64,000 nt of DNA from a virus (taxonomy: Duplodnaviria; Heunggongvirae; Uroviricota; Caudoviricetes). Each line of letters opens with the position of its first letter. Within the stretch, counting starts at the first letter, position 1. The notes under the pieces are model-generated. The model made no database searches. It was not told where the DNA came from and was given only the letters and a program-made list of their open reading frames with translations. A program made the position numbers and the translations under genes. Below are positions 8,168 to 44,185 of the stretch, in pieces. Where the stretch lies: positions 128,001-192,000 of IMG/VR virus record IMGVR_UViG_3300009709_000001; one strand, written 5' to 3'.

Positions 8168-8253
8168 TGGTTGCGGAGGGTGGAATCGAACCACCGGGGA
8201 CAATGTCTTTGGGTTATGAGCCCAACGCGCTACCGACTACGCTCTACCCCGCC
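8168..8253 (-). tRNA. initiator-like tRNA-Met(CAT) with extended variable arm
   Basis: 1:72 mismatch, GGG/CCC, loop CTCATAA, variable region AGACATTGTCCC. Confidence 0.8.
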
Positions 8254-8462
8254 AGTATTCTTGCACTGAGAACTCGAATAAGAGCTGATGTAATTTCACA
8301 TTCAACTATTGTACCAATCCTCAAATTTTCAAACTCTAAATCTGGTGTATGTGGAAACAGATGATAAACGTTACCGTTCTCAACTTTCACATATGCTGTT
8401 CGATAAGGTATAGAAATGTCTACAACCTTACCTTCTATAAAATACGGAATCTCACCAGGCAT
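8244..8462 (-). CDS. hypothetical protein; stop codon lies inside tRNA-Met
   Basis: TAG at tRNA positions 8-10. Confidence 0.55.
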   Translation of the reverse strand: MPGEIPYFIEGKVVDISIPYRTAYVKVENGNVYHLFPHTPDLEFENLRIGTIVECEITSALIRVLSARILAG

Positions 8463-8481
8463 TCCATATTTATCGATTTCG

Positions 8482-8555
8482 TGGTGCTCCCAACAGGAAT
8501 CGAACCTGTGACCCTATCGTACCAAGATAAGATTTTACCACTAGACTATAGGAGC
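8482..8555 (-). tRNA. tRNA-Thr(GGT)
   Basis: Loop TTGGTAC, CCA. Confidence 0.9.
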
Positions 8556-8734
8556 AATCGGATAAGCTATATATCATTCTCTGCATAATATACGCATGGT
8601 TACGGTAGCATCAAACGACATTCCGTAACATATCCTTTAAAGAACAAATTGGTGAAGCGCAGTAATCAAAAATTATAAGTATTTGAAGTGATCCGACTAT
8701 TACGGGTCGAATATACTGCTAACTTTACCGTGCC

Positions 8735-8947
8735 TTAGACCGAGCTGTCGTTGTCGGTATTCGATACAGACTTGGACTTATGGTCTTTGGACTTCAAAGC
8801 AGCTCGGCGGGCTGCTTCGTCATGAAGTTGTGCCTGAATTAGCATATCCTTCATATGAGCTCTGTCTTCTTTAGAACCCTTCATCAGGGCGAGAATACCC
8901 TTCGATGATTTCTTCATTCTAAAGTTTTTATCCGGAATCATTCTCAT
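8735..8947 (-). CDS. hypothetical protein
   Basis: ORF. Confidence 0.55.
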   Translation of the reverse strand: MRMIPDKNFRMKKSSKGILALMKGSKEDRAHMKDMLIQAQLHDEAARRAALKSKDHKSKSVSNTDNDSSV

Positions 8948-9310
8948 TTATCTATTATCCTGCTGCGGCTTTGGTTTCGGAATCGCATTTATTTTTGTTC
9001 TGACTGAAACCAATTGTTCGTTAAGGGTTCTAGCTTTTTTCTCACTGTCCCCTTGGCGTTTATTTAAGTCTATAATAGCACGTTGCATCTCGTTAAGTCT
9101 ACCTGATACGTCATTGGGTGCAGATTCTATTTTTCTAATTTTCGGAACGGCTAAAACAACAGAAATAACCGAAGTAGATAAATCCCAGATTACATCTTTA
9201 ACTTCGTAGTATTCATCCTCAAGTTGTACGGTATCACCTTTTCTCGGAATAAACTGAGTATCCCCTTTGAAAATTTGTTCTTCGTATTCGTTGATGTATG
9301 ATACTAACAT
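8948..9310 (-). CDS. hypothetical protein
   Basis: ORF. Confidence 0.6.
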   Translation of the reverse strand: MLVSYINEYEEQIFKGDTQFIPRKGDTVQLEDEYYEVKDVIWDLSTSVISVVLAVPKIRKIESAPNDVSGRLNEMQRAIIDLNKRQGDSEKKARTLNEQLVSVRTKINAIPKPKPQQDNR

Positions 9311-9322
9311 TCTTTCTTATTT

Positions 9323-9398
9323 TGGCTCCGGAGGTAGGGATCGAACCTACGACACGCGGATTAACAGTCCGCTGCAACTACCTCTGTGCTACTCCGGA
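9323..9398 (-). tRNA. tRNA-Asn(GTT)
   Basis: Loop CTGTTAA, GCCA. Confidence 0.9.
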
Positions 9399-9407
9399 AT
9401 AGTTGTA

Positions 9408-9483
9408 TGGTGGAGGTGACAGGACTCGAACCCGCTACCTACTGAATGCAAATCAGTCGCTCTCCCTGGTGAGCTACACCCCC
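9408..9483 (-). tRNA. tRNA-Ala(TGC)
   Basis: G3:U70, loop TTTGCAT. Confidence 0.9.
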
Positions 9484-9502
9484 ATGAAACTTTATTTATC
9501 TC

Positions 9503-9898
9503 TCAATATGAATCAAGAAGACTTTTCTTTCTTTGTTCTTCTGCAACTCGAGCCTTTTCTTCGGCGGCAGCCCGAGCACTTTCCTTATCGTTCTTTTCTT
9601 TAATTTTCTGGCAAACCAGAACCTCAAAATCTTCCTGCCATTTACCAGTATGCAACCAACCATAAGTTTCGGTCCAGCCTGGTTGACCACCAGTTATTCC
9701 ATAGATCTGAACTGCTTTACTAAGTTCCGGTGCCTGTGTGACATGCAAGTCTCCAGGTCGAATCGAAGCTACAGTATGATCTGCAGGCAATAACCAAATT
9801 TCGAAAGTACGACCACGGGCATGACTGCCAGAACGAATCCAAAATCTTCCGTATTGTCCTGTTTCGAACAATTCAGCGTAACCTCTTGCACCCTGCAT
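9503..9898 (-). CDS. hypothetical protein
   Basis: ORF from MQGARG. Confidence 0.55.
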   Translation of the reverse strand: MQGARGYAELFETGQYGRFWIRSGSHARGRTFEIWLLPADHTVASIRPGDLHVTQAPELSKAVQIYGITGGQPGWTETYGWLHTGKWQEDFEVLVCQKIKEKNDKESARAAAEEKARVAEEQRKKSLLDSY

Positions 9899-10167
9899 AA
9901 TCGACTTTCTTGAATTAGTGCTATGTTGGTAAGACGGTTTTATAGGACCCAACCAAACCATAACTGATCATGACTCCTGTTATGGGCATACCGATCAAAC
10001 TGCGTTCACAAAGCGATGAACGTCGAATTCTTCACGTAATTCGAATAAGAACCCCTAGGGGAACACAACGTGGTTTGCCTAGAAACCATAACCAGACATC
10101 GTGCCGGATGTCAACGGATAGGGGTGTCTGTTAAGACCAACCATCCCCGAGTTCTTTAATCACGACC

Positions 10168-10427
10168 CTAGCGACCGCGATGATGTCCATGTGGAACTCC
10201 GTGAGTTCTGTAGGCCAGCCACATGGCATGTAACGCACTTCGTGACGAGGACCGTAGAAGAAATAGAGATTTGCTCTCGAATCCCAGTAATAATCTCTTT
10301 CGTATTGCGGATAGGCAACTACCTCGACCGCAACTTCGGGACGAACTCTGTATTCGCCACGCACCGGTGCAACAACACATCCGGCTAACAACATTGCTGC
10401 ACCGAGTGCAGTTAGAATTGCTTTCAT
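10168..10427 (-). pseudogene. small lipoprotein with apparent frameshift near 10215
   Basis: Lipobox LLAGC; the C-terminus YRTHGVPHGHHRGR* continues in another frame. Confidence 0.5.
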
Positions 10428-10443
10428 ATCAATTCTCCTAAAA

Positions 10444-10520
10444 TGGTCGGAGTACAAGGATTCGAACCTTGGACCTCTTGCTCCCAAAGCAAGCGCACTA
10501 CCAGGCTGTGCTACACTCCG
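10444..10520 (-). tRNA. tRNA-Pro(TGG)
   Basis: Loop TTTGGGA, CCA. Confidence 0.9.
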
Positions 10521-10828
10521 ATATTCATATAGTGTAGAAGTTTGGTTAGATTCTTATAATTTTCTAAACCACCTACTACGGTATTACATCTATTACACAA
10601 TATTCCTCGAACTTTTCCGGTAGAATGATCGTGATCGATAAATCCACCTTTATGTCCGACAAACATTTCTATTTCATTTTCGCACAGGCAGCATTTCTTA
10701 TCTTGACTTTCGTACAACCTTATTTGGTCATTTCTAGTCAATCCATACCTGTGCTTGCCGTCTTTGCAAACTCTGCAAGCATAACCCGGTAAGTTATGTT
10801 CCTCTCCACAATACTTGCATGCCTTCAT
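10511..10828 (-). CDS. endonuclease VII-type HNH endonuclease; stop inside tRNA-Pro
   Basis: CxxC...DHDHSTGKVRGILCNRCN. Confidence 0.8.
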   Translation of the reverse strand: MKACKYCGEEHNLPGYACRVCKDGKHRYGLTRNDQIRLYESQDKKCCLCENEIEMFVGHKGGFIDHDHSTGKVRGILCNRCNTVVGGLENYKNLTKLLHYMNIGV

Positions 10829-10871
10829 GCAAGTATTTATGAATTAGCGCTTGATCACAGCGCTTTTTCAT

Positions 10872-11120
10872 TTAACGCTTCATGAATTGGAGGCCGGTGT
10901 AAACCAAGCATCCAACAGTGACTAGCGACCACAGAGCCGCAGCCGAAATACCGGTGACAAAAGCCACACCAGTTACAAACAACCATGCAACCAAGAAAAA
11001 GATCACGAAGGATGCAATAGTCCCGATAATTTCACCGGTCTCGGTACCTTGCGTGCCAGTCAGATTGGTAATCTGATTTGCCAGCTTGTTAATCCATGTC
11101 ATCAACATCATCTTCTCCAA
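10872..11120 (-). CDS. small membrane protein
   Basis: Hydrophobic C-terminal half. Confidence 0.5.
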   Translation of the reverse strand: MEKMMLMTWINKLANQITNLTGTQGTETGEIIGTIASFVIFFLVAWLFVTGVAFVTGISAAALWSLVTVGCLVYTGLQFMKR

Positions 11121-11127
11121 AAAATTA

Positions 11128-11622
11128 GTGCTTCGCGGTATACCTAATCCAATTGATACTTTTGCTAACGCTTCAGCTCGCGGTTTAGAACATTGCAGAA
11201 GTCGCGGAAGAACCCAACTTCCACCCTTGCATGACGGCCAGGTGATAATTTAACGTGTCTACCCCAGAATAACTCCATGATTCTGGCATTATCGAACGAC
11301 GTTTTCCCTTCAAAATGAAGTGGCACATAATGGCTTTACAGGCTACCAGCGGACTCTTGTAACGACGTATTCCGCAGTTTCCGTGAATTCGTGTTTCATC
11401 TCTTAGCATCCGATTCTAGAGATTAACGCTTCAACTCGCGAAACAGTTTCAAGTCATGTCCAGGACATTTATCTCTCAGGCAATTACCCCACCAAATTCA
11501 GTAAGCAGCATTGGTCGCTCTGCCTAAAATTTTACATCGTTTGGGCGAAGATGCGAATATGGACTGGCTCAAGGTTTATACTCCTTGGTCGTTATCCGCG
11601 CCATCTAAGGCACGCGCCATTG
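11128..11622 (-). ncRNA. ROOL-like large ornate RNA
   Basis: Blocks recalled from ROOL RNAs (GGGGTAATTGCC...ATAAATGTCC, GGAAACTGCGGAATACGTCGTT, TATCACCTGGCCGTC, GCAAAAGTATCAATTGGATTAGGTATACC); ends approximate; recognised from memory, not searched. Confidence 0.6.
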
Positions 11623-11625
11623 ATT

Positions 11626-11701
11626 TGGTGAGTCCTACCGGTCTCGAACCGATGACATTCTGCGTGTAAGGCAGATGCTCTACCAACTGAGCTAAAGACC
11701 C
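11626..11701 (-). tRNA. tRNA-Val(TAC)
   Basis: Loop CTTACAC, CCA. Confidence 0.9.
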
Positions 11702-11892
11702 GAATTCTTATAAAATATCCATGTTTCCCTAATATCAAACCACTGAGCATAAACCGATTGTCTTAATCGCCATCCGGCAATTTTCAATATAAGCTTATCT
11801 TCAGGTGTCGGAAGGTATCACACAAATTGAACTATGGCGATCATCTTCGTATCTGTGTGATACCTTCCGACCAATAACGGCAGCTCAATCAT
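11692..11892 (-). CDS. small ORF with in-frame TGA (11818-11820); terminal stop inside tRNA-Val
   Basis: MIELPLLVGRYHTDTKMIAIVQFV*YLPTPEDKLILKIAGW...KNSGL*. Confidence 0.35.
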
Positions 11893-11895
11893 TGC

Positions 11896-12168
11896 TTAAC
11901 TGTTGTCTATTTTGCCTTTTAATACTGCGATTGTCAATACTTCCGGGTCTATCTTTCCTTTAATTAGTCTGACTGATGTAACCAATTCAGTCATTTCATC
12001 AAGTTCCCATTCGCATCCAGCCCATTCAAAGGTGGATGAAAAGTATTCACAAAATCCAGTCGACCTGCCCCATTTAACCTGACCATTGTCAATAGCTGTT
12101 TTCAACGTATAAAGATACGCTTTTGGAAAATTGCAATCGACATGATCTAAATTATCTGGCCAAGCCAT
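11896..12168 (-). CDS. hypothetical protein
   Basis: ORF. Confidence 0.55.
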   Translation of the reverse strand: MAWPDNLDHVDCNFPKAYLYTLKTAIDNGQVKWGRSTGFCEYFSSTFEWAGCEWELDEMTELVTSVRLIKGKIDPEVLTIAVLKGKIDNS

Positions 12169-12363
12169 AAAATACCTTTTTGCTACGAATGTCGAGACTC
12201 CCAGGCCGTGTATTCCCCTCGAGTGGGTTAAAGGACTTGCACCTAGACCGATATACGAATTTCGTAGTGACCATTGCTCCTGCCGAGTAGCTTGCCGACA
12301 TTACATCTGCAAACATCGTAGCAAAAAAGCACTTCATAATTGTATGACATTTTTAACGGTTTG

Positions 12364-12849
12364 TCAAAACCCTTCTGCATTGCAAAATTCAATAACTTCC
12401 TCGATAGGAACCTGTCCAAAAAAGGACATGGTAAAAATAATCCTATCAGTTTCGAGATTGAGTACAGAATGGAATTTCTTCACATTCAGTAATGTCATTT
12501 CATTTGGGCGGTATACCAATTCCTCAATATTGCACATCGCACTTAAGGATGTTGCCTCTGTGAAAATAGTATGAGATTTGTATGTCCCCAAAGACATATT
12601 CAAGGCACAAGCTCTTTGAGCATCTTGGTGCCAATGGTAAAACGTATTTGCCCGTTGCCGAACAAGAAAAGGATCTACCGAAAACTTTTCCTTCAATCTT
12701 TTCAACACGGGATCTGTATCGAGCATCTCAAGTGGAATACTCGATAAATCAGCATCTTTCCGTATCGACCAGACTAAATCATTCCTTCTGGAATATTCAG
12801 TAAGTTCATCAGTAATTACCGACTTAGTCGGCAATGTATAGAACAACAT
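12364..12849 (-). CDS. 2OG-Fe(II) oxygenase/cupin-like protein
   Basis: HxD (WHQD), distal H (FHSV) and R. Confidence 0.6.
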   Translation of the reverse strand: MLFYTLPTKSVITDELTEYSRRNDLVWSIRKDADLSSIPLEMLDTDPVLKRLKEKFSVDPFLVRQRANTFYHWHQDAQRACALNMSLGTYKSHTIFTEATSLSAMCNIEELVYRPNEMTLLNVKKFHSVLNLETDRIIFTMSFFGQVPIEEVIEFCNAEGF

Positions 12850-13241
12850 TTGAATAACTATTCCGCTTTATCACCAAATCGACAGTACCATAGGACGCAG
12901 TTTTAAAGAATTAGTGATGTACGCACAATTCCAACCTACGGCATAGGGGCCAATTATTCCCCCAATCCACATGCCAGCTTTACGCACAGAAAACCAGCAA
13001 ACACATGGGCATCCATACACTCCTGACCTCGGTCGACAACCGATATAGGTTAGGGACAAAAATGCACAGATGGTCTTGGTATCGGACGGGCCGTACCGGT
13101 TACTCAAAAACTTAGAGGCTGCAACAATACCGCGGCTTTAACATACCTACTTTCGTACAACCGTCTATACGCGAATTCGCATAAACAGCAGGTCTACCAG
13201 TCCAGGCGACAAATGTCGCGCGTTGCTTTTCTGCATAACCT

Positions 13242-13326
13242 TGGTGCGGGTAAAGGGACTCGAACCCCCACGCCTTGCGGCGCCAGAACCTAAATCTGGT
13301 GCGTCTACCAATTTCGCCACACCCGC
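13242..13326 (-). tRNA. tRNA-Leu(TAG)
   Basis: Loop TTTAGGT, long variable arm. Confidence 0.9.
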
Positions 13327-13369
13327 ATAACTCAACTAATTATTGCAAATCTACAAGAAAAATGCAAGT

Positions 13370-16386: not shown

Positions 16387-16463
16387 TGGTGCGCCTTGTG
16401 GGATTCGAACCCACGGTCACGGATTTAGAGTCCGCTGCTTTAGGCCGGCTAAGCTAAAAGCGC
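16387..16463 (-). tRNA. amber suppressor tRNA (anticodon CTA)
   Basis: GCGGA-CTCTAAA-TCCGT, intact cloverleaf and CCA; own promoter TTGACA-17-TAAAAT at about 16477-16505. Confidence 0.9.
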
Positions 16464-20722: not shown

Positions 20723-21067
20723 TTAAATATCGAATTTTCTACCTTTTGCCAAATTTTCTTTTGAAGGCAAATATTGCAAATTTTCTATGACATGAAGACC
20801 ACTTACAAATTCGCCATTTAGTGGAATAATGTGATCGACATGATATCCGATTGGGCAAGATAGATAAAATCTCTCAATTGTATCTAAATCTGACCATGGC
20901 GGTATTCTTTTTAACTTCGCTGCTCGTTCCTTTGCTGACTTGAGTTTAACCTTTTCAGGATATTTCTCTCGCCATTTTCTGTGGCGATCTTTATTTATCT
21001 TCAGATCATTTAATCGTTTTGCAACGATAGCTTCTTCGGGAGTGTGATACTTTCTTGGTCTCGGCAT
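20723..21067 (-). CDS. HNH endonuclease
   Basis: YHVDHIIPLNGEFVSGLHVIENLQ...EN. Confidence 0.8.
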   Translation of the reverse strand: MPRPRKYHTPEEAIVAKRLNDLKINKDRHRKWREKYPEKVKLKSAKERAAKLKRIPPWSDLDTIERFYLSCPIGYHVDHIIPLNGEFVSGLHVIENLQYLPSKENLAKGRKFDI

Positions 21068-21098
21068 AGGTAAAAGAATGGGAGCCGAAACTCCCATT

Positions 21099-21385
21099 GC
21101 TATTTTGGGTAACAAGGCATAACTGCCCCGGAGTGCTGTTAGGCGAATGCGACTTCGGCGTCTGCGAAAGCAGAGAGGTCGAAAGAAGCAAACTCGGTAG
21201 AAACGTTATTTGCGTTTACTTGGTTTGACGATTAACGATCGTTATTCGTGTTGTCTGCCTTGATACTTGCTACACTGTCGATTTCCGGAGGTCCCCCATC
21301 AAAAACACACAGAATGCGCTTTTGGTGGAGGACAGGGGATTCGAACCCCTTTCCAGCCCAGTTTTCTCTAAGCTTCATACAACAA
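21099..21385 (-). ncRNA. ssrA: two-piece (circularly permuted) tmRNA; tag ANNVSTEFASFDLSAFADAEVAFA at 21139-21213
   Basis: Acceptor piece ...GGGGTTCGAATCCCCTGTCCTCCACCA precedes GGGGGAC...TCGAC coding piece; TAAAC|GCA resume site; terminator at 21076-21097. Confidence 0.85.
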
Positions 21386-21425
21386 TAAAATTCAGGCGTT
21401 TGCCTTAGTCCCTATTATGCACTAC

Positions 21426-22094
21426 TTACCACATGATGTCAAAATTCCCACGCATAACCTGCTTAACACTGCCGGATTTGCCTGTAATGTGGTCTTTTAC
21501 AACATCATCTTGGAAACGATAGGTGCGAATTTTATCGCCCCTCATTCCCGAACCAACTTGCGATTTCCTCTCAACAGCGAGGCTAGCTTTCTTGTCTAAA
21601 TAATTTCCTTTTGTTAACTGTTCGATTAACGCCGCTTTAGCCTCTTCTAAACTGTTAACTCTAGACCTATGTTGAGCTGTGGCAATCTGTCCGGTTGGTA
21701 TATAAGTTATTCTACAAGAATTCTGATGCTTATTGCGATGTTGACCACCTGCACCAGTTCCGCTATACCATTCAATCTTAAAATCTTCATCCCTAAGCGT
21801 TAGTGTCGGAATTTCTGGATCGATAATTGCAACGGTTACGGTACTTGTATGAACTCTACCTTTTCTTTCTGTCGGTGGAATTCGTTGTATACGATGCCCA
21901 CCTGCTTCATTTTCAAGCATAGACAAATCATCGCCGATAACTTCTACAAAAACTTCACCGGCTACAGATTTAACTATGCGATTGATTCAGCCTACTCGAT
22001 CGCAATGCTTTTGATATGCAATTGCAAGATCAGATGCAAACAACTTGCTATCTTCTCCGCCTTCGGCTCCACGAATTTCAATTACTCTTTTCAT
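21426..22094 (-). CDS. RF1-like peptide chain release factor lacking domain 1, with in-frame TGA at codon 36 (21987-21989)
   Basis: MKRVIEIRGAEGGEDS...RVG*INR...EAGGHRIQRIPPTERKGRVHTS...GAGGQ...KIRTY; AAGGA SD before ATG 22094. Confidence 0.85.
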
Positions 22095-30524: not shown

Positions 30525-30533
30525 AAAATAAAT

Positions 30534-30863
30534 TAACTGTCCTGTAAGCGGAGTTCTGTGCCCTTGCGGGTGACAATCATTCATCTACAGTTACCTGTCC
30601 TCCCCGGCTTCGCTTCCGGATCATAGGTGCCACAACCCGTTCCCTCGGCGAGCAGCGTCAGCGAGAACTGTTTGTGTTGCTGCGGAGTCGTTGTGGTGCG
30701 AACGTGGTATGAACGTATAGTCTAGGGTGACACGCACCTGGGACCATTATATCCTTTTTCTTAAGGCGCTCTATAGCGTATACCACTCCCACAGAGCGAC
30801 AAGCCCTGCTCTGTGCAGCCCCGACTTTCCTCTAGCTTGCGCCAGCGATTGTCCGGACAATTA
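30534..30863 (-). ncRNA. rnpB: RNase P RNA
   Basis: GAGGAAAGTCGGGGC near the 5' end; TAGATGAATGATTGTC and ACAGAACTCCGCTTA near the 3' end; terminal P1 pairing. Confidence 0.9.
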
Positions 30864-30867
30864 AACC

Positions 30868-30944
30868 TGGTACCCCGAGTCGGATTCGAACCGACAACCA
30901 ACGGATTTTAAATCCATCCGCACTACCGATTAGCGTATAGGGGC
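30868..30944 (-). tRNA. tRNA-Leu(TAA), short variable loop
   Basis: Loop TTTAAAA, CCA. Confidence 0.8.
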
Positions 30945-31091
30945 TTCGTCTTTGTTATCGTCTTCCCTCATATCAGGATGAGTCGGCTCGTCTTTCTTCT
31001 TACCGAAAATCTTTTCCCAACCTTCTCGGTACTTATCATTATTGGATTTCGATTTTAATTCGTCACCCGTTACATCATTTCTGCTTGTCAT
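30930..31091 (-). CDS. small phage protein; stop inside tRNA-Leu
   Basis: MTSRNDVTGDELKSKSNNDKYREGWEKIFGKKK...EAPIR*. Confidence 0.55.
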   Translation of the reverse strand: MTSRNDVTGDELKSKSNNDKYREGWEKIFGKKKDEPTHPDMREDDNKDEAPIR

Positions 31092-31303: not shown

Positions 31304-31395
31304 TGGAGGCCAGGGATGGATTCGAACCACCGATGAATACTAAGTAGATAATTGCTTTGCAGGCAAGTGCCTTCGACCGCTTGGACTACCTGGCC
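31304..31395 (-). tRNA. tRNA-Cys(GCA) with long variable region
   Basis: Loop CTGCAAA, U73. Confidence 0.8.
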
Positions 31396-32811: not shown

Positions 32812-33645
32812 GGATGGCTGAGATTACACCATTACCTATCAACGCTCCGAGCATTATCAGCAAACCTTGCGAGTAAGCCTTCTCTCGACATCCACTATAG
32901 CCCTTTCGGTACTATAGTCCGTTGACAGCATCGCCGTTTTAAGTCAGGCAGTAGACTTGACATCATATGCTATTCTACGCTTTCTATCCCACTAGCCTTG
33001 CGAGCTATTCATCTCCGCTAAGAGATTATGAAACTTCTTGCATAAACAGATTTCACCGTGCGAGCTACGTCCGACATGGTTAGCCTGCGCCCCATGTATT
33101 AGATGCTTTTCACATATGACCGAAGTAGTCTTTGCGTTTTTATTTGATTAAACCTATCAAGTTTGCTAATCTACTGTGATGTGCTACTTCCGTTGCTGAA
33201 TAACCTTTTGGGCTACCCAATACAACACACCACGTACCTTTTGCCTGCCGGCTACTCAGTGGTCTTTCTCGATTAATGTCATTAACTGCCAAAAACCGAT
33301 CATACTGCATACAAGCCCTAGAATGCGAGTCTCGGACAAATACACTACCCTTTCTCATACCAATTAACAAGTTTGGTATGTAGTGAAGATGGTACCACCC
33401 ACCTTTTCATCGACACGAGTTCCCCTTACGGGCTCGGCTGCCAACATTCTTTCCACTACACTTGCGTCCTTGCTACTTCACCCGGTGTTACCTCAGATAA
33501 AGCTCCCTTTCGGGAGTGAGCAGGCTTGCTTAAACGGACTATCTCTAGCGATGGTATGTAGACATTCCATCTTTGGGCGTCTCACGACGCTTACCCTTCT
33601 GATAGGCTGGGCGAACCATACCTATCAAGGAAATTAAGCTTCCCT
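32812..33645 (-). ncRNA. GOLLD-like giant ornate RNA
   Basis: About 830 nt without a credible ORF, many tetraloop hairpins, blocks GGTGTGTTGTATT and GCAAAGACTACTTCGGTC, 3' end TAATCTCAGCC; recognised from memory, ends approximate. Confidence 0.6.
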
Positions 33646-35671: not shown

Positions 35672-35675
35672 CTTG

Positions 35676-36098
35676 TTAATTTAATTTCTGAGATTTCACG
35701 ATACGACGCATTTCATTCTCAATATCGCGTTTCTTCTCAGATTCTCTCTTATCGTATTCCTTCTTACCCTTTGCAAGTCCAATCTTCAATTTGAACTTAC
35801 CACGCAATGGATAAATCTTCAACGGTATAAGAGTTAGTCCGCGTTCTTGAGTTCTACCCATAACGCGGTTAATTTCTTTCTTGTTCAAAAGCAGTTTTCG
35901 TGTGCGAAGTTGATCATTATCAGCACTTCCCATCGAAGCACCGACTAGATATACTTCACCGTTACGGATGACACAATGTGTGCCGGCAATCGAACACACG
36001 TCCGATGCAATGGCCTTTGCTTCCCATCCTTGCAAAACCATTCCGCTCTCAAATTCTTCAAGAATTTCGTAATCGTGATAAGCTTTCTTATTTTGCAT
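35676..36098 (-). CDS. smpB: SsrA-binding protein SmpB
   Basis: NKKAYHDY, ESGMVLQGWEAK, RTRKLLL and GLAKGKKEYDKR. Confidence 0.95.
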   Translation of the reverse strand: MQNKKAYHDYEILEEFESGMVLQGWEAKAIASDVCSIAGTHCVIRNGEVYLVGASMGSADNDQLRTRKLLLNKKEINRVMGRTQERGLTLIPLKIYPLRGKFKLKIGLAKGKKEYDKRESEKKRDIENEMRRIVKSQKLN

Positions 36099-36116
36099 TT
36101 CAAAACTCGCTATGTT

Positions 36117-36191
36117 TGGCAAGGGTGGTGAGAATCGAACTCACTAACCGTGGGTCAAAGCCACGTATGCATACCATTGCATATCACCCCA
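36117..36191 (-). tRNA. tRNA-Gln(TTG)
   Basis: Loop CTTTGAC. Confidence 0.85.
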
Positions 36192-36319: not shown

Positions 36320-36394
36320 TGGACCCCCTGCAAGGAATCAAACCTTGACCTGAACGTTCGTAGCGTTCTGTTCTATTCATTGAACTACAGGGAG
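36320..36394 (-). tRNA. tRNA-Arg(ACG)
   Basis: Loop CTACGAA. Confidence 0.85.
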
Positions 36395-36843
36395 TTATTC
36401 TTAATCAATATTTTGGATTTTTCTACCATCTCATCTGTGATTGCAATTTTACCGCCATGAATTTTTCTATGACAATTAGAGCAAACCACAATACATTTTT
36501 CAACTTCTTTTAGAATAGTATCTAACGGATATTTTGCAATCATCCCCGAAATATCATATTCTTTACTTTCCGGTTCAAGATGATGAAATTCAATACACTT
36601 TATGTAATCCTCGCCACATACTATGCATGATAGTGTCGATTTCCATCTTAACGCCGATTCTTTATAATTGCGATTTCTTTCACCGACTGCACTAACAATT
36701 TTTTCTCTGTGTAAGCGATAAGAATTTTTAGATGTCTCTCGCCTACAATCATTGCATTGTCCGTGCAGTTGATTTTTAGACCTAGATCTCCATGCATATT
36801 GGTCTAGGTCTTTAGTACACCTACATTTCGAACATACTTTCAT
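36385..36843 (-). CDS. HNH endonuclease; stop inside tRNA-Arg
   Basis: CIVCG...EFHH...KCIVVCSNCHRKIH. Confidence 0.8.
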   Translation of the reverse strand: MKVCSKCRCTKDLDQYAWRSRSKNQLHGQCNDCRRETSKNSYRLHREKIVSAVGERNRNYKESALRWKSTLSCIVCGEDYIKCIEFHHLEPESKEYDISGMIAKYPLDTILKEVEKCIVVCSNCHRKIHGGKIAITDEMVEKSKILIKNNSL

Positions 36844-37886: not shown

Positions 37887-37891
37887 ATATT

Positions 37892-37970: not shown

Positions 37971-38082
37971 AATAATTCTATCTCACCTCATGTGGGCCCC
38001 GATCCGACGACCCCTATCCTATCGAATAGTGCTCTACCTCTGAGCTAATGTGATGATTTTATGAAACTTTCGTTTCAGTGAT

Positions 38083-38189
38083 TGGTGGAATCTACGGGGT
38101 TCGAACCCGCCACAGGCGCCGCCTGCTACTCCAGATACTCAGTTCAATATGAAATTGTGCACCCAGGATTGAACTTTTCAACAGATCCC
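38083..38189 (-). ncRNA. tRNA-like RNA with Ala-type acceptor and non-cloverleaf core
   Basis: GGGATCT/AGATTCC-ACCA (G3:U70) and T arm GCGGG-TTCGAAC-CCCGT. Confidence 0.55.
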
Positions 38190-38195
38190 ATAATA

Positions 38196-38270
38196 TGGTG
38201 GACCGCTCAGGTCGCGAACCTGATGTAAGACTGACCGTGACGTTTTAAGCCACATAGCATTTAGCAGCCC
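38196..38270 (-). ncRNA. D-arm-less tRNA-like RNA with Ala-type acceptor
   Basis: GGGCTGC/GCGGTCC-ACCA (G3:U70), GTGGC-TTAAAAC-GTCAC, T arm. Confidence 0.55.
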
Positions 38271-38274
38271 GAAT

Positions 38275-38745
38275 TCAAAAAGTAGGAATAAACCAATCCG
38301 GCATATTCCTGTTTGTCCATTTTGCAAGATGTTGCTTGTGAACATTGTAATACTTTCGGTATGCCTGTACAGGATCTTCGTCCCTTACATCATCTGGCAT
38401 AGCCAATCTAAACGGTGTAATACCTTTAGATTCAATATTCGGTACAGGTAGAGACTGTATCACATTAAAAGCCTTATGATTTTCGCTGTGATCATATCTA
38501 TACATATATTCGTAGTTGAGTTCTGTTGCCAGCTCTCTCAACCACAACCAATTATCTTGTGACTCCCTTGTCCAAATTGCACAAGGATGATTCTGATGCG
38601 TAATTTTATAGCCTGCATCAACGCCTGTCAATCTCACCGCTGTACTCAAAAGTTGAGCATATTCGGTAACCATTTTGACCACATGCCTGTCGACATGGGC
38701 CTTGGCGCATTCGTGTAAATCGTTATCTAGATAAAAGATATTCAT
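38275..38745 (-). CDS. second DenV-like glycosylase paralog
   Basis: Highly similar to 36988..37479. Confidence 0.7.
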   Translation of the reverse strand: MNIFYLDNDLHECAKAHVDRHVVKMVTEYAQLLSTAVRLTGVDAGYKITHQNHPCAIWTRESQDNWLWLRELATELNYEYMYRYDHSENHKAFNVIQSLPVPNIESKGITPFRLAMPDDVRDEDPVQAYRKYYNVHKQHLAKWTNRNMPDWFIPTF

Positions 38746-38757
38746 TTTTCTTATTAT

Positions 38758-38835
38758 TGGTGCCCCGGGAGGGATTCGAACCCACACTGTACGGTTTCTA
38801 AAACCGGTGCCTCCTACCTATTGCGCTACCTGGGC
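38758..38835 (-). tRNA. tRNA-Leu(TAG), short variable loop
   Basis: Loop TTTAGAA. Confidence 0.8.
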
Positions 38836-38836
38836 A

Positions 38837-39280
38837 TTATTTCTTGACTGCAACCATAATTACGGCACAGCCTGATGTATTGTCTTCAAGGACCATGGAA
38901 TGAATTTTCTTATGGTTAAATTCATAAACGTGATTTAGTGATACTACTGCTTCTTCATCTTCGGCAGTAATGATGCTTGTACCCTTCGGTAGTACCACGG
39001 GTATCACAAAAGTGCGCGGTTCAAACACATTGGGATCTAATAAGTCCGTATGTGGCTCAGCACCCTTGCACACGCTAAAATATACAAAATCCAGGCGGTT
39101 TTTGTCAACTCCCACAACGGTTGCGATCCGATCCATCAAAAGTGAATCGGCGCTGCTGACAGCATGGACCTGGAATTTCTTCGGTGTATTTGTTTTGTAA
39201 CTCTGGAGCTTAATGCTTTCGGCATTAATCGCAATTTGTTCCGGGACATCAATAATACCGTGACAAACAATCTTATCCAT
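38837..39280 (-). CDS. 2OG-Fe(II) oxygenase/cupin-like protein
   Basis: PHTD and IHS. Confidence 0.55.
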   Translation of the reverse strand: MDKIVCHGIIDVPEQIAINAESIKLQSYKTNTPKKFQVHAVSSADSLLMDRIATVVGVDKNRLDFVYFSVCKGAEPHTDLLDPNVFEPRTFVIPVVLPKGTSIITAEDEEAVVSLNHVYEFNHKKIHSMVLEDNTSGCAVIMVAVKK

Positions 39281-39295
39281 AGATTACTTTCATTT

Positions 39296-39372
39296 TGGAG
39301 ACTCTGGTGAGAATCGAACTCACTCTTTGAACTGTTTTGCAGACAGTTGCCTTCCCAATCGACCACAGAGCC
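39296..39372 (-). tRNA. tRNA-Cys(GCA)
   Basis: Loop CTGCAAA, U73. Confidence 0.85.
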
Positions 39373-39383
39373 ATTGAATTTGA

Positions 39384-39457
39384 TGGGTTGAACCGGGGAA
39401 TCGAACCCTCGCCTACTGTTTCACAGACAGTCTTGCTACCACTACACTAGGAACAAC
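39384..39457 (-). tRNA. tRNA-His(GTG)
   Basis: Loop CTGTGAA, C73. Confidence 0.85.
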
Positions 39458-39471
39458 ATCGAAATTAAAAA

Positions 39472-39592
39472 CAGGTTCGCAATTTATATCCTACCATTAG
39501 ACGACAGTAGCGACCAACTCTACCGCTGGGATTCGAACCCAGATCTTCTTTTTTACAGAAAGATTATTATTTATTGCTGAAACGAACCTAAA
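39472..39592 (-). ncRNA. CAGCAA-scaffold RNA containing a complete circularly permuted tRNA (anticodon GTA)
   Basis: AGGTTCGTTTCAGCAA...TCTTT-CTGTAAA-AAAGA AGAT CTGGG-TTCGAAT-CCCAG CGGTAG-loop-CTACTG TCGTCTAATGGTAGGAT...CGAACCTG. Confidence 0.75.
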
Positions 39593-39604
39593 GTCGAAAT
39601 AAGT

Positions 39605-39711
39605 CAGGATGGGTGACTGATGGCCGGGAGTCGAACCCTATGTCACTGGCCCCAATGGCCTGGCCCGCAAAGTTTTGGCTGCGTGAATTGCTTGCTGCAA
39701 TCATCCTTTAG
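39605..39711 (-). ncRNA. CAGCAA-scaffold RNA with a T-loop hairpin
   Basis: TAAAGGATGATTGCAGCAA...GGG-TTCGACT-CCC...CATCCTG. Confidence 0.65.
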
Positions 39712-39716
39712 AAATT

Positions 39717-39793
39717 TGGTTCCCATGGTCGGATTCGAACCGACACTGAACAGTGTTTGAAACTGCTGACTCTACCGATTGGCCTACATGGGC
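39717..39793 (-). tRNA. tRNA-Leu(CAA), short variable loop
   Basis: Loop TTCAAAC. Confidence 0.8.
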
Positions 39794-39802
39794 ATCGAAT
39801 AC

Positions 39803-40006
39803 TTACTTGGCTGGTGCATCCGGAATGTTATCGCAAACACCAGTCTGAGTGCATCTATAATCGACACATTCTCTCAACTTTGGATCGGCCTGGCACTTCT
39901 TATCAAATTCGGCCTTTTCGACCTGAGCTGGCGTTGGTTCGCCGCAAGCTGTTAACCCTGCAATAAAACCAAGTGATAGAAGAACTGTAAAAATTACCTT
40001 TGTCAT
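39803..40006 (-). CDS. small lipoprotein
   Basis: Lipobox LTAC, Cys-rich. Confidence 0.6.
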   Translation of the reverse strand: MTKVIFTVLLSLGFIAGLTACGEPTPAQVEKAEFDKKCQADPKLRECVDYRCTQTGVCDNIPDAPAK

Positions 40007-40092
40007 AATTATCTCCGTTGTGTAGTTTGTCTATTGGACAAACTATTTATGATGCTTTTCTTACTATTTTGAAAAATAGTAAAATCTAATAT

Positions 40093-40168
40093 TGGCCGGC
40101 TAGGAACGACTCGAACGCTCAACCTTTGGTTTTGGAGACCACTGCGCTGCCAATTGCGCTACTAACCG
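40093..40168 (-). tRNA. tRNA-Trp(CCA) with 4-bp anticodon stem
   Basis: GTGGT-CTCCAAA-ACCAA, G27:A43 mismatch. Confidence 0.85.
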
Positions 40169-40176
40169 AAATTATA

Positions 40177-40253
40177 GGTGCCGAGACTGGACTTAAAGAT
40201 TACAGAAAGGGCCAGTCCGTCCGGCGGTTGCTGAAGTGCAGTAACCTTTCTTA
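40177..40253 (-). ncRNA. scaffold RNA variant with possible 3' pseudoknot
   Basis: TAAGAAAGGTTACTGCA...CCTTTCTG; inner GCCG..GACTGG can pair with downstream CCAGTC-TCGGC. Confidence 0.5.
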
Positions 40254-40261
40254 CTAAATTA

Positions 40262-40338
40262 TGGCAGGGCGGGAGAGATTCGAACTCTCAACGTGCAATT
40301 TTGGAGACTGCTGTTTTACCAATTGAAACTACCGACCT
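40262..40338 (-). tRNA. tRNA-Trp(CCA) with U11-A24
   Basis: D stem GTTT/AAAC, loop CTCCAAA. Confidence 0.85.
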
Positions 40339-40347
40339 ATCGAAATT

Positions 40348-40423
40348 TGGCTCCGTGTGAACGATTCGAACGCTCCTCACCTGGTTAACAGCCAGGGGTA
40401 CTCACCAAGAATACGAACACGGA
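40348..40423 (-). tRNA. tRNA-Asn(GTT)
   Basis: Loop CTGTTAA. Confidence 0.85.
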
Positions 40424-40437
40424 ATTATTTTATATTA

Positions 40438-40516
40438 TGGAGCGGGCAGGGAGAATCGAACTCCGCGAGCTACGGTGTGGAAGACCGTTGTGCGCCCTTT
40501 GCACTAGTCAACCCGC
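40438..40516 (-). tRNA. tRNA-Gly(TCC)
   Basis: Loop CTTCCAC, U73. Confidence 0.8.
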
Positions 40517-40913
40517 CTTTAATTAATGCACCTCTTCCTCGGCCCTTATTCTTAGAGCCGTAGAATTCGGTTTGTGTATGGCAATTTGGACATAGAAGAG
40601 TTAAATTATCTTCGTTATTATTCCGGCTATTACCGTCAATATGTTCCAATTGTAATGTCAGGGATTTACCATTCCAGGTATTGCCTTGTCTACATGACTG
40701 GCAAGTGTCATTAAACTTTTCAAGAATATATCGCCTAATAAACGAACTAGTCTGTGTCTCACCCTTTAGGCCATTTTCTAATCCGTTTTTCCAACGATCT
40801 ATATATTCATTATATTGATGTGTATGTTGGCACAGATGCCCACAGAATTTATTCTTCTTGTTGGAGGCTTTCTTTACACCAATTCCACAACAAAGGCAAA
40901 CATAAATAGACAT
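40470..40913 (-). CDS. HNH endonuclease reading into tRNA-Gly
   Basis: LQLEHIDGNSRNNNEDNLTLLCPNCH. Confidence 0.85.
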   Translation of the reverse strand: MSIYVCLCCGIGVKKASNKKNKFCGHLCQHTHQYNEYIDRWKNGLENGLKGETQTSSFIRRYILEKFNDTCQSCRQGNTWNGKSLTLQLEHIDGNSRNNNEDNLTLLCPNCHTQTEFYGSKNKGRGRGALIKGGLTSAKGAQRSSTP

Positions 40914-41088
40914 AACGCGATCTCCTGTTATGATTATTTATGATCGCGTGGTTATTCGTGCCACGCATTTATGAATCGGCGTCTGACTTCCGATACTTAA
41001 AGATAGCACCGGCATTTCATCCGGTTTGCATGATCAAGGCCTGGCTATCTATGTTATGTTCTTGCGGGGGCCGTAGCCCCCGGCTTGT

Positions 41089-42120
41089 TTAGACCGTTGC
41101 AGCGGACCAGATCATCAGGTTCGTACCTTCGGTCAGCTTGCGGTTGACGGAAGTCGACTGGACGAAGATGTCGTACTGGCCATGTGCACCAGGAGCAACC
41201 TTGCAGTCACCCACATGCGGGAGGCCGAGCATGTCACGAGCAGAGAAACCACTGTAGACAGAACCGGACTTCTTGTCACGGATTGCGATCTGCTTGTAGT
41301 CCTGGACCGTTTCGGTCTTGGCCAGCTGATAGAAAGCGCAACCCTTCGTGAACGTCACACCTTGTGCTTGCACGAAATCGCGAATTTGCACGCCGTCGTT
41401 CACAGCGTCGACGCGATACACGTCAACTTCCTGCGAAATGTCCACCAGTGCAGCCTTGACTTCTGCCACCGAAACCTTGCTCAGGTCGGTGTAGAACTTG
41501 TCAGTAGAGCCAACACCTGCGGAACGTGCAGCATAGAAGCCCTTGAACGCAGCCTTGGTAGACGCAGTCGAAGCAGCCATGCCGCGCTGGGTTTGCTCCC
41601 ATTCCTGGATGTTGCCTGCGGGGATACCGTAGCGCACCAGTGTGGCTGCATCACCCTTCGGGACACGGAACACGAATGTCCAACGGTCGGTGGCTTGCAG
41701 TTGCTTGATCATTGCGCCGATCTGCGGACCGGAATACTTCACGCTGGCGTTCTCGCCACCGTCGGTAGTCACAAAGACCAGGAACGAAACTTCGGGATCA
41801 GCACCGTCCGGTGCAGCCTGCAGTTGCTCGATCAGGGAGCCAACAGCGTCGAACAGCGGCGTACCGCGGCCTTCTGCTGTGTAATCAGCCTCGGCAATGG
41901 GGGCCAGGGCGATGATCGAAGAATTCGAAACCACAGTACGAACATCGCTGGTGCGACCGTAACCGAGTTCAACAACCGACACGATAGTGTCGATGCCGTA
42001 TGCCACGGCTTCTTCCTTGATAGCTGCGATGCTGTCGTTGTAATCACGTGCGGCGTGACGAGCAATACCGCTCATCGAGCCGGAGTGATCTCGGGCAAAG
42101 CCGAAGTAATTCTTCTTCAT
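41089..42120 (-). CDS. von Willebrand factor A domain protein
   Basis: DHSGSM (MIDAS), GTPLFDA and TDGGEN; own sigma70 promoter at about 42166-42194. Confidence 0.8.
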   Translation of the reverse strand: MKKNYFGFARDHSGSMSGIARHAARDYNDSIAAIKEEAVAYGIDTIVSVVELGYGRTSDVRTVVSNSSIIALAPIAEADYTAEGRGTPLFDAVGSLIEQLQAAPDGADPEVSFLVFVTTDGGENASVKYSGPQIGAMIKQLQATDRWTFVFRVPKGDAATLVRYGIPAGNIQEWEQTQRGMAASTASTKAAFKGFYAARSAGVGSTDKFYTDLSKVSVAEVKAALVDISQEVDVYRVDAVNDGVQIRDFVQAQGVTFTKGCAFYQLAKTETVQDYKQIAIRDKKSGSVYSGFSARDMLGLPHVGDCKVAPGAHGQYDIFVQSTSVNRKLTEGTNLMIWSAATV

Positions 42121-42218
42121 AAATGCCTTTCTGTGTGTACGTCACAATTAACGTTTACAGGACTAACTATATAAGTATGTCAAATTTTTGTCAACTGATT
42201 TTTATCAATTGATTTTTA

Positions 42219-42340
42219 TGGTTCCGCCCCAGGGAATCGAACCCCGTCTACTTCCTTATCATGGAATTTGAATTTATTGCTGAACGTATCCTTGGCAGGA
42301 TCACCTCGTTTAAGCATGCTACCGTTACATCAAAGCGGAA
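42219..42340 (-). tRNA. tRNA(GAT)-like gene interrupted by a 47-nt CAGCAA-scaffold insert
   Basis: TCCGCTT-TGATGTAACGGTAGCATGCTT[insert 42265-42311]CC-ATGATAA-GGAAG...T arm...GGGCGGA-ACCA. Confidence 0.65.
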
Positions 42341-42511
42341 TTGTTGGTGCCAGAATTAGATATACCGATAGCGATCGTCTTTCCAGCATAGAAAATGGAG
42401 CAAGATACGTGATATAATCTAGTGATTCGTACCCGGCACTGAATGGCGCCACGTCTAATCCAACGTATACGGCTATAAGACCAGTTAGTTACGCAGGGAC
42501 ACGGCATTGAT

Positions 42512-42587
42512 TGGTGGGTTCGCCCAGCATCGAACTGGGATCTCGCTGCTTAAGAGGCAGGACTCTAGCCAATTGAGTTACAAACCC
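42512..42587 (-). tRNA. tRNA-Lys(CTT)
   Basis: Loop CTCTTAA. Confidence 0.9.
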
Positions 42588-43429
42588 GTAACTTGTGATT
42601 TTGTTTCTATTCCTAATGCGGCAAATTGTGCCCTTATCTCGGTATTCACCATCGAATAATACTTTTTGGTATTGATTAAATGGCGGAGAAGCATGTGTCC
42701 GTCAATCTCTGGCGGTGTTTCATGATCCTCGATAGAAACGTTTGCGTAATGTTTCAACGCATTTGCATTGTTTCGGAACAGTAAATCAGTTCCAATTATG
42801 TCTGTCGACCAATGCATATTCAATTGCACTGATGGATTCTGGACATAATCATCTAGAAAATCTATAACATTGAAGTAAGACTTCATGTGTCCCACATTAT
42901 CATGGGCATAGATACAATGCTTTCTTGATAGCCAGTTCGTAAACTGACTAACATCAAATTCGTGTTCTCCACCAATTACCTTCAAATAAGGTGTAGTTAG
43001 GTTCAGAGAATGATAGGGTACATCAGCAGATGTAAGGATTGCAGGAATAGATCCGCCCGAATCAGCGAATACAACAGTTTTCTTTGTTGTACCATTGGTA
43101 TATAACTTCTCGTTCAGTATGTTTGCAATACCGAAGAAGGAATCACATACACCCATAATTCCGAGATAATTTGCAATGTAGACACCATGGTCTCTATTTG
43201 CATCTCTAATTGAAACTACGTTTACATGCTGACCTAGTTTATTGAAAAAGTGCTTCTTCCAAAAAACAAGAGTTCTTGCAATGCTCGAAGTAGTTGGGCC
43301 ACCTAGGCCATTAAACTGAATAAAAGTGACAGGCGATCTATCGCTAAAGTCAAATCCTATTCCATTTTCATGAATAAAAACTTGATCTGTTGATCTTCCG
43401 TAATTAATAGTTTCCGATGTATATGACAT
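42578..43429 (-). CDS. alpha/beta-hydrolase-like protein; stop inside tRNA-Lys
   Basis: ADSGG nucleophile-elbow-like motif and distal GH. Confidence 0.5.
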   Translation of the reverse strand: MSYTSETINYGRSTDQVFIHENGIGFDFSDRSPVTFIQFNGLGGPTTSSIARTLVFWKKHFFNKLGQHVNVVSIRDANRDHGVYIANYLGIMGVCDSFFGIANILNEKLYTNGTTKKTVVFADSGGSIPAILTSADVPYHSLNLTTPYLKVIGGEHEFDVSQFTNWLSRKHCIYAHDNVGHMKSYFNVIDFLDDYVQNPSVQLNMHWSTDIIGTDLLFRNNANALKHYANVSIEDHETPPEIDGHMLLRHLINTKKYYSMVNTEIRAQFAALGIETKSQVTGL

Positions 43430-43436
43430 CGACTAT

Positions 43437-43727
43437 TTAGTACGGAAATTCATACCCGTATTCAGAAAGGTATCTTCGTGCCTTTCTCATAACTTCCTCA
43501 CTAGGCTGAACTTTCTTAAATCCAGTCCTTAGAATATAGAAATCTTCGCAATCGTTGTCAAATAACTCTATGTAATATAAATCGCCGCTGGTTAAACCTG
43601 CATGCGAATTACATACAAATAATGCCTTCTTGGCATTCGATGCGATGCGTACAACTTCTTCGCATTCGCCCGAAAGCGACCAGTCATATCGATAATTATC
43701 AGATACGTCGATAAAAAAAGGTTTCAT
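43437..43727 (-). CDS. hypothetical protein
   Basis: ORF. Confidence 0.5.
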   Translation of the reverse strand: MKPFFIDVSDNYRYDWSLSGECEEVVRIASNAKKALFVCNSHAGLTSGDLYYIELFDNDCEDFYILRTGFKKVQPSEEVMRKARRYLSEYGYEFPY

Positions 43728-43731
43728 ATCT

Positions 43732-43806
43732 TGGTACCCCTGACGGGATTCGAACCCGCCTGAGTAGGTTGAAAGCCTACGGACCTCACCAGAAGTCGAC
43801 AGGGGC
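43732..43806 (-). tRNA. tRNA-Glu(TTC)
   Basis: Loop CTTTCAA. Confidence 0.85.
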
Positions 43807-43812
43807 AGTGTT

Positions 43813-43898
43813 TGGTACCCTGTGGGGGATTCGAACCCCAGCCCTTTTGGGCATCACCTTGAAAGGGTGAGGACCGTTGCCAGCAGTCGACACAGGAT
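43813..43898 (-). tRNA. tRNA-Glu(TTC) with long variable arm
   Basis: Loop CTTTCAA, variable arm GCCC-AAAA-GGGC. Confidence 0.8.
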
Positions 43899-43899
43899 A

Positions 43900-43973
43900 T
43901 GGTAGCTCCAACAAGAATCGAACTTGTGAGACCCGGTTATCGGCCGAGGATTATACCACTTAATTATGGAGCC
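43900..43973 (-). tRNA. tRNA-Ile(GAT)
   Basis: Loop CCGATAA. Confidence 0.8.
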
Positions 43974-44185
43974 ATTGATTGTTCGTATTGAATTAATTCC
44001 TGAATTATTTCGTCTCTATCAAAACTTCTTATGAAGTATGCATCTTCTGGGCTTATAGTACCCGGTTGATAATATCCGAATTTAATCAGAAAATCCATAG
44101 GAAGATGCCTAATCCTAAAATAGATATTATCTGTTCTAGGGATGTTATATTTCAGAGAGACATATAATTCGTCAATTTCATTCAT
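43964..44185 (-). CDS. hypothetical protein; stop inside tRNA-Ile
   Basis: Ends ...QSMAP*, TAA at tRNA nt 8-10. Confidence 0.5.
   Translation of the reverse strand: MNEIDELYVSLKYNIPRTDNIYFRIRHLPMDFLIKFGYYQPGTISPEDAYFIRSFDRDEIIQELIQYEQSMAP

Follow-up and report, generated by a model that had tools for sequence, protein, structure and literature searches.

Stop codons inside tRNA genes of a phage tRNA island, probably a by-product of tight packing and mobile endonuclease cassettes

Coding sequences (CDS) that run into a downstream transfer RNA (tRNA) gene have been surveyed in bacteria by Hudson, Lau & Williams 2014 (Front Microbiol 5:421). They recorded 250 overlaps with the CDS upstream on the same strand in 2031 genomes, about one per 15,000 messenger RNAs (mRNAs), and drew the comparison with arfA, an established precedent of a nuclease-generated non-stop mRNA (PMC4131195). 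For phage T4, Brok-Volchanskaya et al. 2008 (NAR 36:2094) proposed that tRNA-Arg processing cuts between the last codon of segB and its stop, lowering expression, and the same separation is said there to have been proposed for F-TflI/II of T5 (PMC2330249). SegB is a homing endonuclease encoded in a tRNA cluster; it recognises a tRNA T-arm motif and promotes its own inheritance together with that of the tRNA genes around it (PMC2330249). Here we describe open reading frames (ORFs) that end inside the next tRNA gene in the tRNA island of a caudoviral phage, IMG/VR record IMGVR_UViG_3300009709_000001. The stretch analysed (the window, 64,000 nucleotides (nt)) comprises bases 128001-192000 of this 385,394-bp virus record, which has terminal repeats, and the coordinates below are window positions.

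The layout resembles the overlaps of Hudson et al., in which the upstream CDS shares the strand of the tRNA and runs beyond its 5' end, and tRNA maturation should turn the transcript into a non-stop mRNA (PMC4131195). Unlike in bacteria, the overlaps here cluster in a single phage tRNA island, where they make up about a quarter of the ORF-tRNA junctions, and the phage carries its own transfer-messenger RNA (tmRNA), SmpB and RNase P RNA. As in T4 segB and the T5 genes F-TflI and F-TflII (AY543070), free-standing endonuclease genes are wedged between tRNA genes. However, SegB is a GIY-YIG enzyme, whereas the putative enzymes found here are of the HNH or Endonuclease VII (EndoVII) type, and segB as annotated in T4 RefSeq stops 5 nt short of tRNA-Arg and not inside it.

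Two further systems are comparable. In E. coli arfA, whose non-stop mRNA is generated by RNase III, an endonuclease removes the stop and the product is tied to tmRNA activity, as would be the case here. But arfA relies on a conserved, dedicated hairpin, and truncation gives its active product; here the overlap is not conserved and no function of a truncation is evident. In the tRNA punctuation of animal mitochondria, tRNA excision likewise frees mRNAs that abut or overlap tRNAs; incomplete stops are completed there by polyadenylation, whereas the complete stops found here inside the tRNA would be lost. The non-stop idea is already published (PMC4131195, PMC2330249), and this jumbo phage is a well-populated new example of a known layout, with no new mechanism. 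We consider it likely that its overlaps are a by-product of tight packing and of cassettes in a mosaic phage tRNA island, and not a dedicated control device.

ORFs ending inside tRNA genes and their frequency

A preliminary description of the window had listed eight ORFs with a stop inside the downstream tRNA. Seven of them were open from an ATG to the stop given, and their stops were placed as described: at nt 8-10 of tRNA-Met, -Pro, -Arg, -Lys and -Ile, at nt 13-15 of tRNA-Leu, and past the anticodon stem of a Gly tRNA-like gene (Table 1). Six partner tRNAs were called by both ARAGORN and Rfam (35-66 bits). The eighth ORF, upstream of tRNA-Val, was interrupted by an in-frame TGA, and what remains has only 31 codons and no ATG.

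Judged by their matches and homologues, the seven are real protein-coding genes. Three were recognised by Pfam or PHROG matches, all of the HNH type as had been described, and four by conserved homologues, which for the 283-amino acid (aa), 72-aa and 53-aa ORFs had 45-79% identity. The codon scores of the seven fell within the top 0-4% of spurious ORFs. Short ORFs could also be chance frames that close at the common TAG or TAA of tRNA nt 8-10, and some such frames are expected, with half of the tRNAs carrying the triplet. This holds for 11692..11892, given its internal TGA, low codon score and missing ATG. For the set as a whole it is extremely improbable, because the family matches, homologues and codon scores back the other seven. 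The 53-aa ORF was considered as an ArfA-like stop-less mini-gene and rejected: it had no Pfam match, was not basic, its tail was not conserved and the matching clusters held only viral hypotheticals. The Pfam scan gave no ArfA match among the ORFs.

The Gly(UCC) tRNA-like gene (~40438..40516, minus strand) was called by neither ARAGORN nor Rfam (E<0.05). Between its acceptor and D stems, 5 nt (5-7 nt including a relative) replace U8-A9, and the TAG of the 147-aa HNH gene occupies nt 45-47, immediately past the anticodon stem on its 3' side. The tRNA-like gene probably encodes a working, if atypical, RNA, since it is kept in the relative L014 (~12340..12420) with compensatory changes in the anticodon stem.

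Further cases were found outside the window. The TAG of a fourth HNH gene extends over nt 1-2 of tRNA-Val(gac), an ORF of 232 aa resembling endonucleases runs to nt 59 of tRNA-Ser(tga), and a PD-(D/E)XK endonuclease gene (PDDEXK_5) has its own TGA flush against tRNA-Gly(tcc). Homing-endonuclease-type domains were recognised in four genes by PF02945, PF01844 and phrog_2255/10822/14736, and in two more by phrog_15137 and PF11645.

The preliminary description had proposed that tRNA processing removes these stops and routes the proteins to tmRNA, limiting the nucleases. In such a control, stops would be kept in tRNAs so that RNase P makes non-stop mRNAs, leading to tmRNA tagging and mRNA decay; toxic homing endonucleases would thereby be kept in check, or the expression of an ORF would follow how fast the tRNA matures. 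The required geometry exists at seven ORFs, whose stops lie 3' of the RNase P site. To compare the frequency of this layout with expectation, every credible ORF ending near a tRNA 5' end in the genome was collected with a home-made ORF caller (n = 29). At these junctions 13 stops lay 0-8 nt before the tRNA (positions -11 to -1), five at nt 8 and one at nt 13. In 28 of the 54 tRNAs (52%), nt 8-10 read TAA or TAG. The ORF frames relative to the tRNA were uniform (10/11/8; binomial p = 1.0), and the frame that can use this stop was not in excess. Upstream of a tRNA with the triplet, six ORFs lay in the nt 8-10 frame against 5.0 expected, and five of the six ended at nt 8. Among control tRNAs, which have the triplet and no such ORF (n = 21), 20 had the same frame open over the last 4 codons, 17 over the last 6 and 15 over the last 8, so running on to nt 8 is the default outcome.

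The overlap rate of ORF-tRNA junctions (7/29) was not above that of same-strand gene-gene junctions, 33% of which overlapped according to our own crude gene caller. An excess over the null expectation was thus not seen. The frequency is what chance and packing predict, the very outcome that the preliminary description had named as speaking against its proposal, while its reservation that dense packing and the U8-A9-R10 triplet could account for some cases turned out to be the best explanation. The tRNA 5' leaders point the same way: positions -10 to -1 are A/T-rich with nearly no G (U at -1 in 38/56, A at -2 in 34/56), so stops are easy to find there. This composition persists even where the leader codes for the C-terminus of an ORF (e.g., 3561..3580 and 42588..42607).

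Other phages have similar junctions. In the curated annotation of T5, hegD (F-TflII) ends 23 nt inside a tRNA-Gln pseudogene, hegC (F-TflI) 14 nt inside tRNA-Ser, T5.069 24 nt inside tRNA-Asn and T5.057 6 nt inside tRNA-Met; all four were reproduced by our own pipeline. An annotated CDS of Vibrio phage D479 ends at nt 8-10 of tRNA-Phe. In phiWae14, Xanthomonas phage X1 and Erwinia phage Gravdalen no ORF-tRNA overlap was found, the spacers being 0-10 nt. None of these five phages had a tmRNA above threshold or SmpB. Overlaps were found at 7/29 junctions here and 4/29 in six other phage loci (Fisher p = 0.50), and stops at nt 8 at 5/29 versus 1/29 (Fisher p = 0.19), both in small samples. The rate is therefore not above that of phages without tmRNA or SmpB, which counts against a control through non-stop mRNAs. 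An SmpB-based locus (L006, 41% identity) had few ORF-tRNA junctions and gave little information.

The preferred account, packing plus cassettes, works as follows. Island ORFs either stop no more than about 10 nt short of the next tRNA or continue into it, and about half of the tRNAs offer the conserved U8-A9-R10, readable as TAA or TAG. An ORF in the nt 8-10 frame would need no stop of its own and end in the tRNA; ORFs in the other two frames would end in the A/U-rich leader. Free-standing homing-endonuclease genes adjoin a tRNA and would move with their own tRNA allele as one cassette.

Table 1 Features of the tRNA island in window coordinates, with the basis of each assignment.
Feature	Position	Strand	Basis or remark
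72-aa conserved small ORF, TAG = nt 8-10 of tRNA-Met(cat)	8244..8462	-	eight homologues, 60-75% identity
Endonuclease VII/HNH-type gene, 105 aa, TAG = nt 8-10 of tRNA-Pro 10444..10520	10511..10828	-	PF02945 1.1e-17, residues 25-102/105
Claimed ORF upstream of tRNA-Val, not intact	11692..11892	-	in-frame TGA at codon 25; codon score ~0-2.5
53-aa conserved small ORF, last four codons + TAA = nt 1-15 of tRNA-Leu(taa) 30868..30944	30930..31091	-	homologues
HNH homing-endonuclease gene, 152 aa, TAG = nt 8-10 of tRNA-Arg(acg) 36320..36394	36385..36843	-	phrog_2255 4e-31
HNH endonuclease gene, 147 aa, 47 nt into atypical Gly(UCC) tRNA-like gene	40470..40913	-	PF01844; phrog_10822 7e-25
283-aa protein, TAA = nt 8-10 of tRNA-Lys(ctt) 42512..42587	42578..43429	-	codon score 35; homologues 45-64% identical
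73-aa ORF, TAA = nt 8-10 of tRNA-Ile(gat) 43900..43973	43964..44185	-	homologue with same 'MAP*' end in L013
tRNA-Met(CAU), 86 nt	8168..8253	-	ARAGORN; Rfam 40.8 bits
RNase P RNA, class A-like	30529..30864	-	Rfam RF00010, 86 bits (gathering score 100), E 1e-24
Two-piece (permuted) tmRNA, 24-residue tag ending AFA	21048..21415	-	ARAGORN; Rfam RF04321 81.5 bits
SmpB	35676..36122	-	PF01668 2e-44
N-terminally truncated RF1-like release factor (PCRF + RF-1 domains)	21426..22094	-	readable only if in-frame TGA decoded
GOLLD RNA	32815..33233	-	Rfam, 212 bits; inside tRNA island
tRNA with anticodon CUA (amber suppressor; ARAGORN label 'Pyl')	16387..16463	-	ARAGORN

Relatives and the homing-endonuclease cassette

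Relatives were found through a protein cluster database, where the 283-aa protein had homologues on metagenomic contigs with syntenic tRNA islands. In phage collections no close relative was found by megablast, by tblastn of the 283-aa protein or by a related-locus scan of viral contigs. The overlaps of the 152-aa HNH gene with tRNA-Arg and of the 283-aa ORF with tRNA-Lys are kept in relatives, which favours control through non-stop mRNAs; against it, homologues have the stop at shifted positions or ahead of the tRNA. For the 283-aa ORF, the overlap with tRNA-Lys is present in three lineages with differing stop positions: nt 8 in this phage and in L012 and L013, and nt 21 in L014 and L015, after a small leader indel and with a different tail (…TGL versus …RVCNSNG). 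Its homologue in L016 closes at a stop of its own, 10 nt ahead of a different tRNA. The family of the 72-aa ORF has a conserved …RVLSARIL end followed by one or two variable residues, and four relatives have their own stop, once 7 nt before a tRNA-Met. The closest case for the 53-aa ORF, homologue P0001 (79% identity), ends at the same place, but the more distant P0002 and P0003 do not. The C-terminal tails were the non-conserved part of each family. On these comparisons, the stop-removing layout is not precisely conserved among homologues.

Four further strong overlaps were found in L016 (JGI 3300036770), involving a 209-aa protein, a 4HBT thioesterase, a 647-aa protein and a 2OG-Fe oxygenase. 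The 647-aa ORF ends at nt 21 of tRNA-Asp (near 7921..7997), and three enzymes end at nt 8 of tRNAs. Since ordinary enzymes overlap tRNAs in the same way, the layout is not specific to toxic genes; the thioesterase, the oxygenase and the 647-aa protein, all non-toxic, speak against a device that restrains nucleases.

The cassette is best seen in two relatives, L012 and L013, whose 281-aa proteins are identical. Their sequences agree at 94-100% as far as the 3' end of tRNA-Met and, from the 3' end of tRNA-Arg onwards, at 98-100%. In the stretch between, L012 resembles this phage: the 152-aa HNH gene precedes a tRNA-Arg allele starting CTCCCTGTAG. L013 and L014 are without the HNH gene, and their tRNA-Arg allele, starting CTCACCTTCG, is 63% identical to the L012 type. 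Because the flanks of L012 and L013 are near-identical while the HNH gene and the tRNA-Arg allele differ, the comparison indicates that the two are gained and lost as one mobile block, with the borrowed stop codon inside the block. Presence and absence together with co-conversion of flanking markers was found for the 152-aa HNH gene only, in a comparison of two metagenomic relatives. The 73-aa ORF, which L013 has and L012 lacks, likewise comes with a different tRNA-Ile allele upstream. The cassette matches the intron-less homing of T4 SegB, with homing activity being predicted here.

The sharing of bases between an endonuclease and its tRNA allele could itself be selected on the mobile element, as it would force co-inheritance and make loss of the endonuclease damage a useful tRNA. 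Such an interlock would fit the sharply bounded block in which the HNH gene and a divergent tRNA-Arg allele move between near-identical phages, the tRNA-Ile allele that accompanies the 73-aa ORF, and the fact that all six tRNA-adjacent nuclease genes abut or overlap tRNAs. T4 SegB, which drives the inheritance of neighbouring tRNA genes, is a precedent (PMC2330249). However, an overlap of 10 nt adds little linkage over adjacency, and non-mobile genes overlap likewise. Phages without the HNH gene retain an intact tRNA, which shows that the cassette can be lost or replaced, and cleavage by these enzymes is only predicted. Taken together, we regard a selected interlock as very unlikely.

Cassettes that sit against their target tRNA would also account for the enrichment of nucleases, which make up five of the 10 ORFs touching a tRNA and one of the ~19 others.

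Ribosome-rescue genes and the fate of the mRNAs

Four genes of the island bear on what would happen to a non-stop mRNA. The RNase P RNA was matched over its full length with the P4 core motifs aligned and the middle shortened, and lies 3 nt downstream of tRNA-Leu(taa). No gene for the RnpA protein was found in the genome, and no description of a phage-encoded RNase P RNA was found in the literature searched. SmpB has its own TAA 3 nt before tRNA-Gln(ctg), the stop starting at -6. A tmRNA and a release-factor-like gene complete the set (Table 1), and SmpB and the PCRF fragment recur in relatives.

RNase P cuts at nt 1 of the tRNA. On this established biology, cleavage would part the overlapping ORFs from their stops. 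The first ribosomes, close behind the polymerase, would probably terminate normally, because a ribosome at nt 8-10 blocks formation of the acceptor stem. Ribosomes that reach an already cut mRNA would come to a halt at its 3' end and depend on rescue by the tmRNA-SmpB of the host or the phage. We infer that this non-stop outcome would be a tolerated side effect, at most a mild damping of the endonucleases, and not the reason for the placement of the stops.

A control exerted through non-stop mRNAs has several observations on its side in addition to the geometry and the two kept overlaps. The RNase P RNA, tmRNA, SmpB and release-factor-like protein are coded in the same island as the overlaps, the nucleases are enriched among the tRNA-touching ORFs, and arfA, cited in PMC4131195, sets an established precedent for non-stop mRNA made by a nuclease. 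For segB and F-TflI/II, a mechanism of this kind has been proposed (PMC2330249). What speaks against such a control is that adaptive placement of the stops finds no support in the chance-level frequency, in T5 and D479, which have overlaps without tmRNA or SmpB, in the drift of the stop or in the ordinary enzymes of L016. Moreover, PDDEXK_5, the sixth nuclease, ends at a TGA of its own right next to the tRNA, and stops 0-8 nt before a tRNA would fall to 3' exonucleases nearly as readily. The proposal holds as to geometry and is not supported as to purpose, and we consider such a control unlikely. A stronger version, in which the phage clade runs a self-contained loop, seems distinctly less likely still: the RNase P RNA that it encodes would cut the mixed ORF-tRNA transcripts and purposely leave homing endonucleases and a few other genes with non-stop mRNAs, and its own tmRNA (with an unusual 24-residue tag), SmpB and truncated RF1-like factor would decide the fate of the products. 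If this were true, endonuclease dosage would be tied to the load of tRNA maturation.

Several observations weigh against packing and cassettes as the whole explanation. Among ORFs entering a tRNA, 7/9 use the nt 8-10 frame, which gives the earliest stop (p = 0.008), and in a small sample from L016 five of seven junction ORFs were in this frame. Because entering ORFs mostly use the earliest-stop frame, long run-ons appear to be avoided, which suggests that selection shapes the junctions at least to this extent. The overlap with tRNA-Lys has held across three lineages at 51-64% protein identity, though one base change could make an upstream stop. The possession of an own RNase P RNA, tmRNA, SmpB and release-factor-like gene is compatible with a special need for ribosome rescue, and the enrichment of nucleases is also predicted by a model in which toxic nucleases are restrained. 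The counts themselves depend on a home-made ORF caller and a small cross-phage sample (29 junctions). Two features mark arfA-type control, conservation of the layout across homologues and an excess of overlaps over packing and chance, and both were lacking here.

The tRNA island and implications of the layout

ARAGORN predicted 54 tRNAs and one tmRNA in the genome, with 44 tRNAs in the window, every one on the minus strand. Rfam added a tRNA at 7910..7982 (minus strand) that ARAGORN misses, and this Rfam-only tRNA resembles the tRNA-Met that follows the homologue of the 72-aa ORF in L019. ARAGORN also undercounts tRNAs elsewhere: a remnant with T-arm, acceptor and CCA (46093..46180, minus strand) lies directly upstream of tRNA-Trp 46004..46092. 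The Trp, Gln, Cys, Glu and Met tRNAs are 86-92 nt long, which is unusual for these isotypes (45908..46092, 31304..31395, 43813..43898 and 8168..8253, minus strand); judged by eye, the extra length appears between the anticodon arm and the T arm. GOLLD RNA is known to be linked with tRNA clusters and HNH genes, and the one found here fits this pattern (PMC6582537). The model of YrlA (Y RNA-like) gave a sub-threshold match at 450..510 (minus strand), with 42 bits against a cut-off of 69.

The tRNA with anticodon CUA prompted us to consider a global recoding of TAG. This was rejected, as reading through any one stop does not extend the long ORFs and TAG closes 53 of the 400 long ORFs in the genome (13%). 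Local read-through of the four tRNA-embedded TAG stops may occur; if tRNA(CUA) is active, these four would be read through.

The default settings of Prokka and PGAP are said to discard CDS that overlap tRNAs. If pipelines do so, real genes such as these endonucleases would be lost or truncated in the annotation of phage tRNA islands. Should the regulatory reading be true after all, the layout would tie the control of selfish nucleases to tRNA maturation and ribosome rescue. On the reading that we prefer, a stop inside a tRNA would be a generic and largely neutral result of packing ORFs against tRNAs with U8-A9-R10, and endonucleases travelling with their own tRNA allele would help to explain why phage tRNA islands are mosaic.

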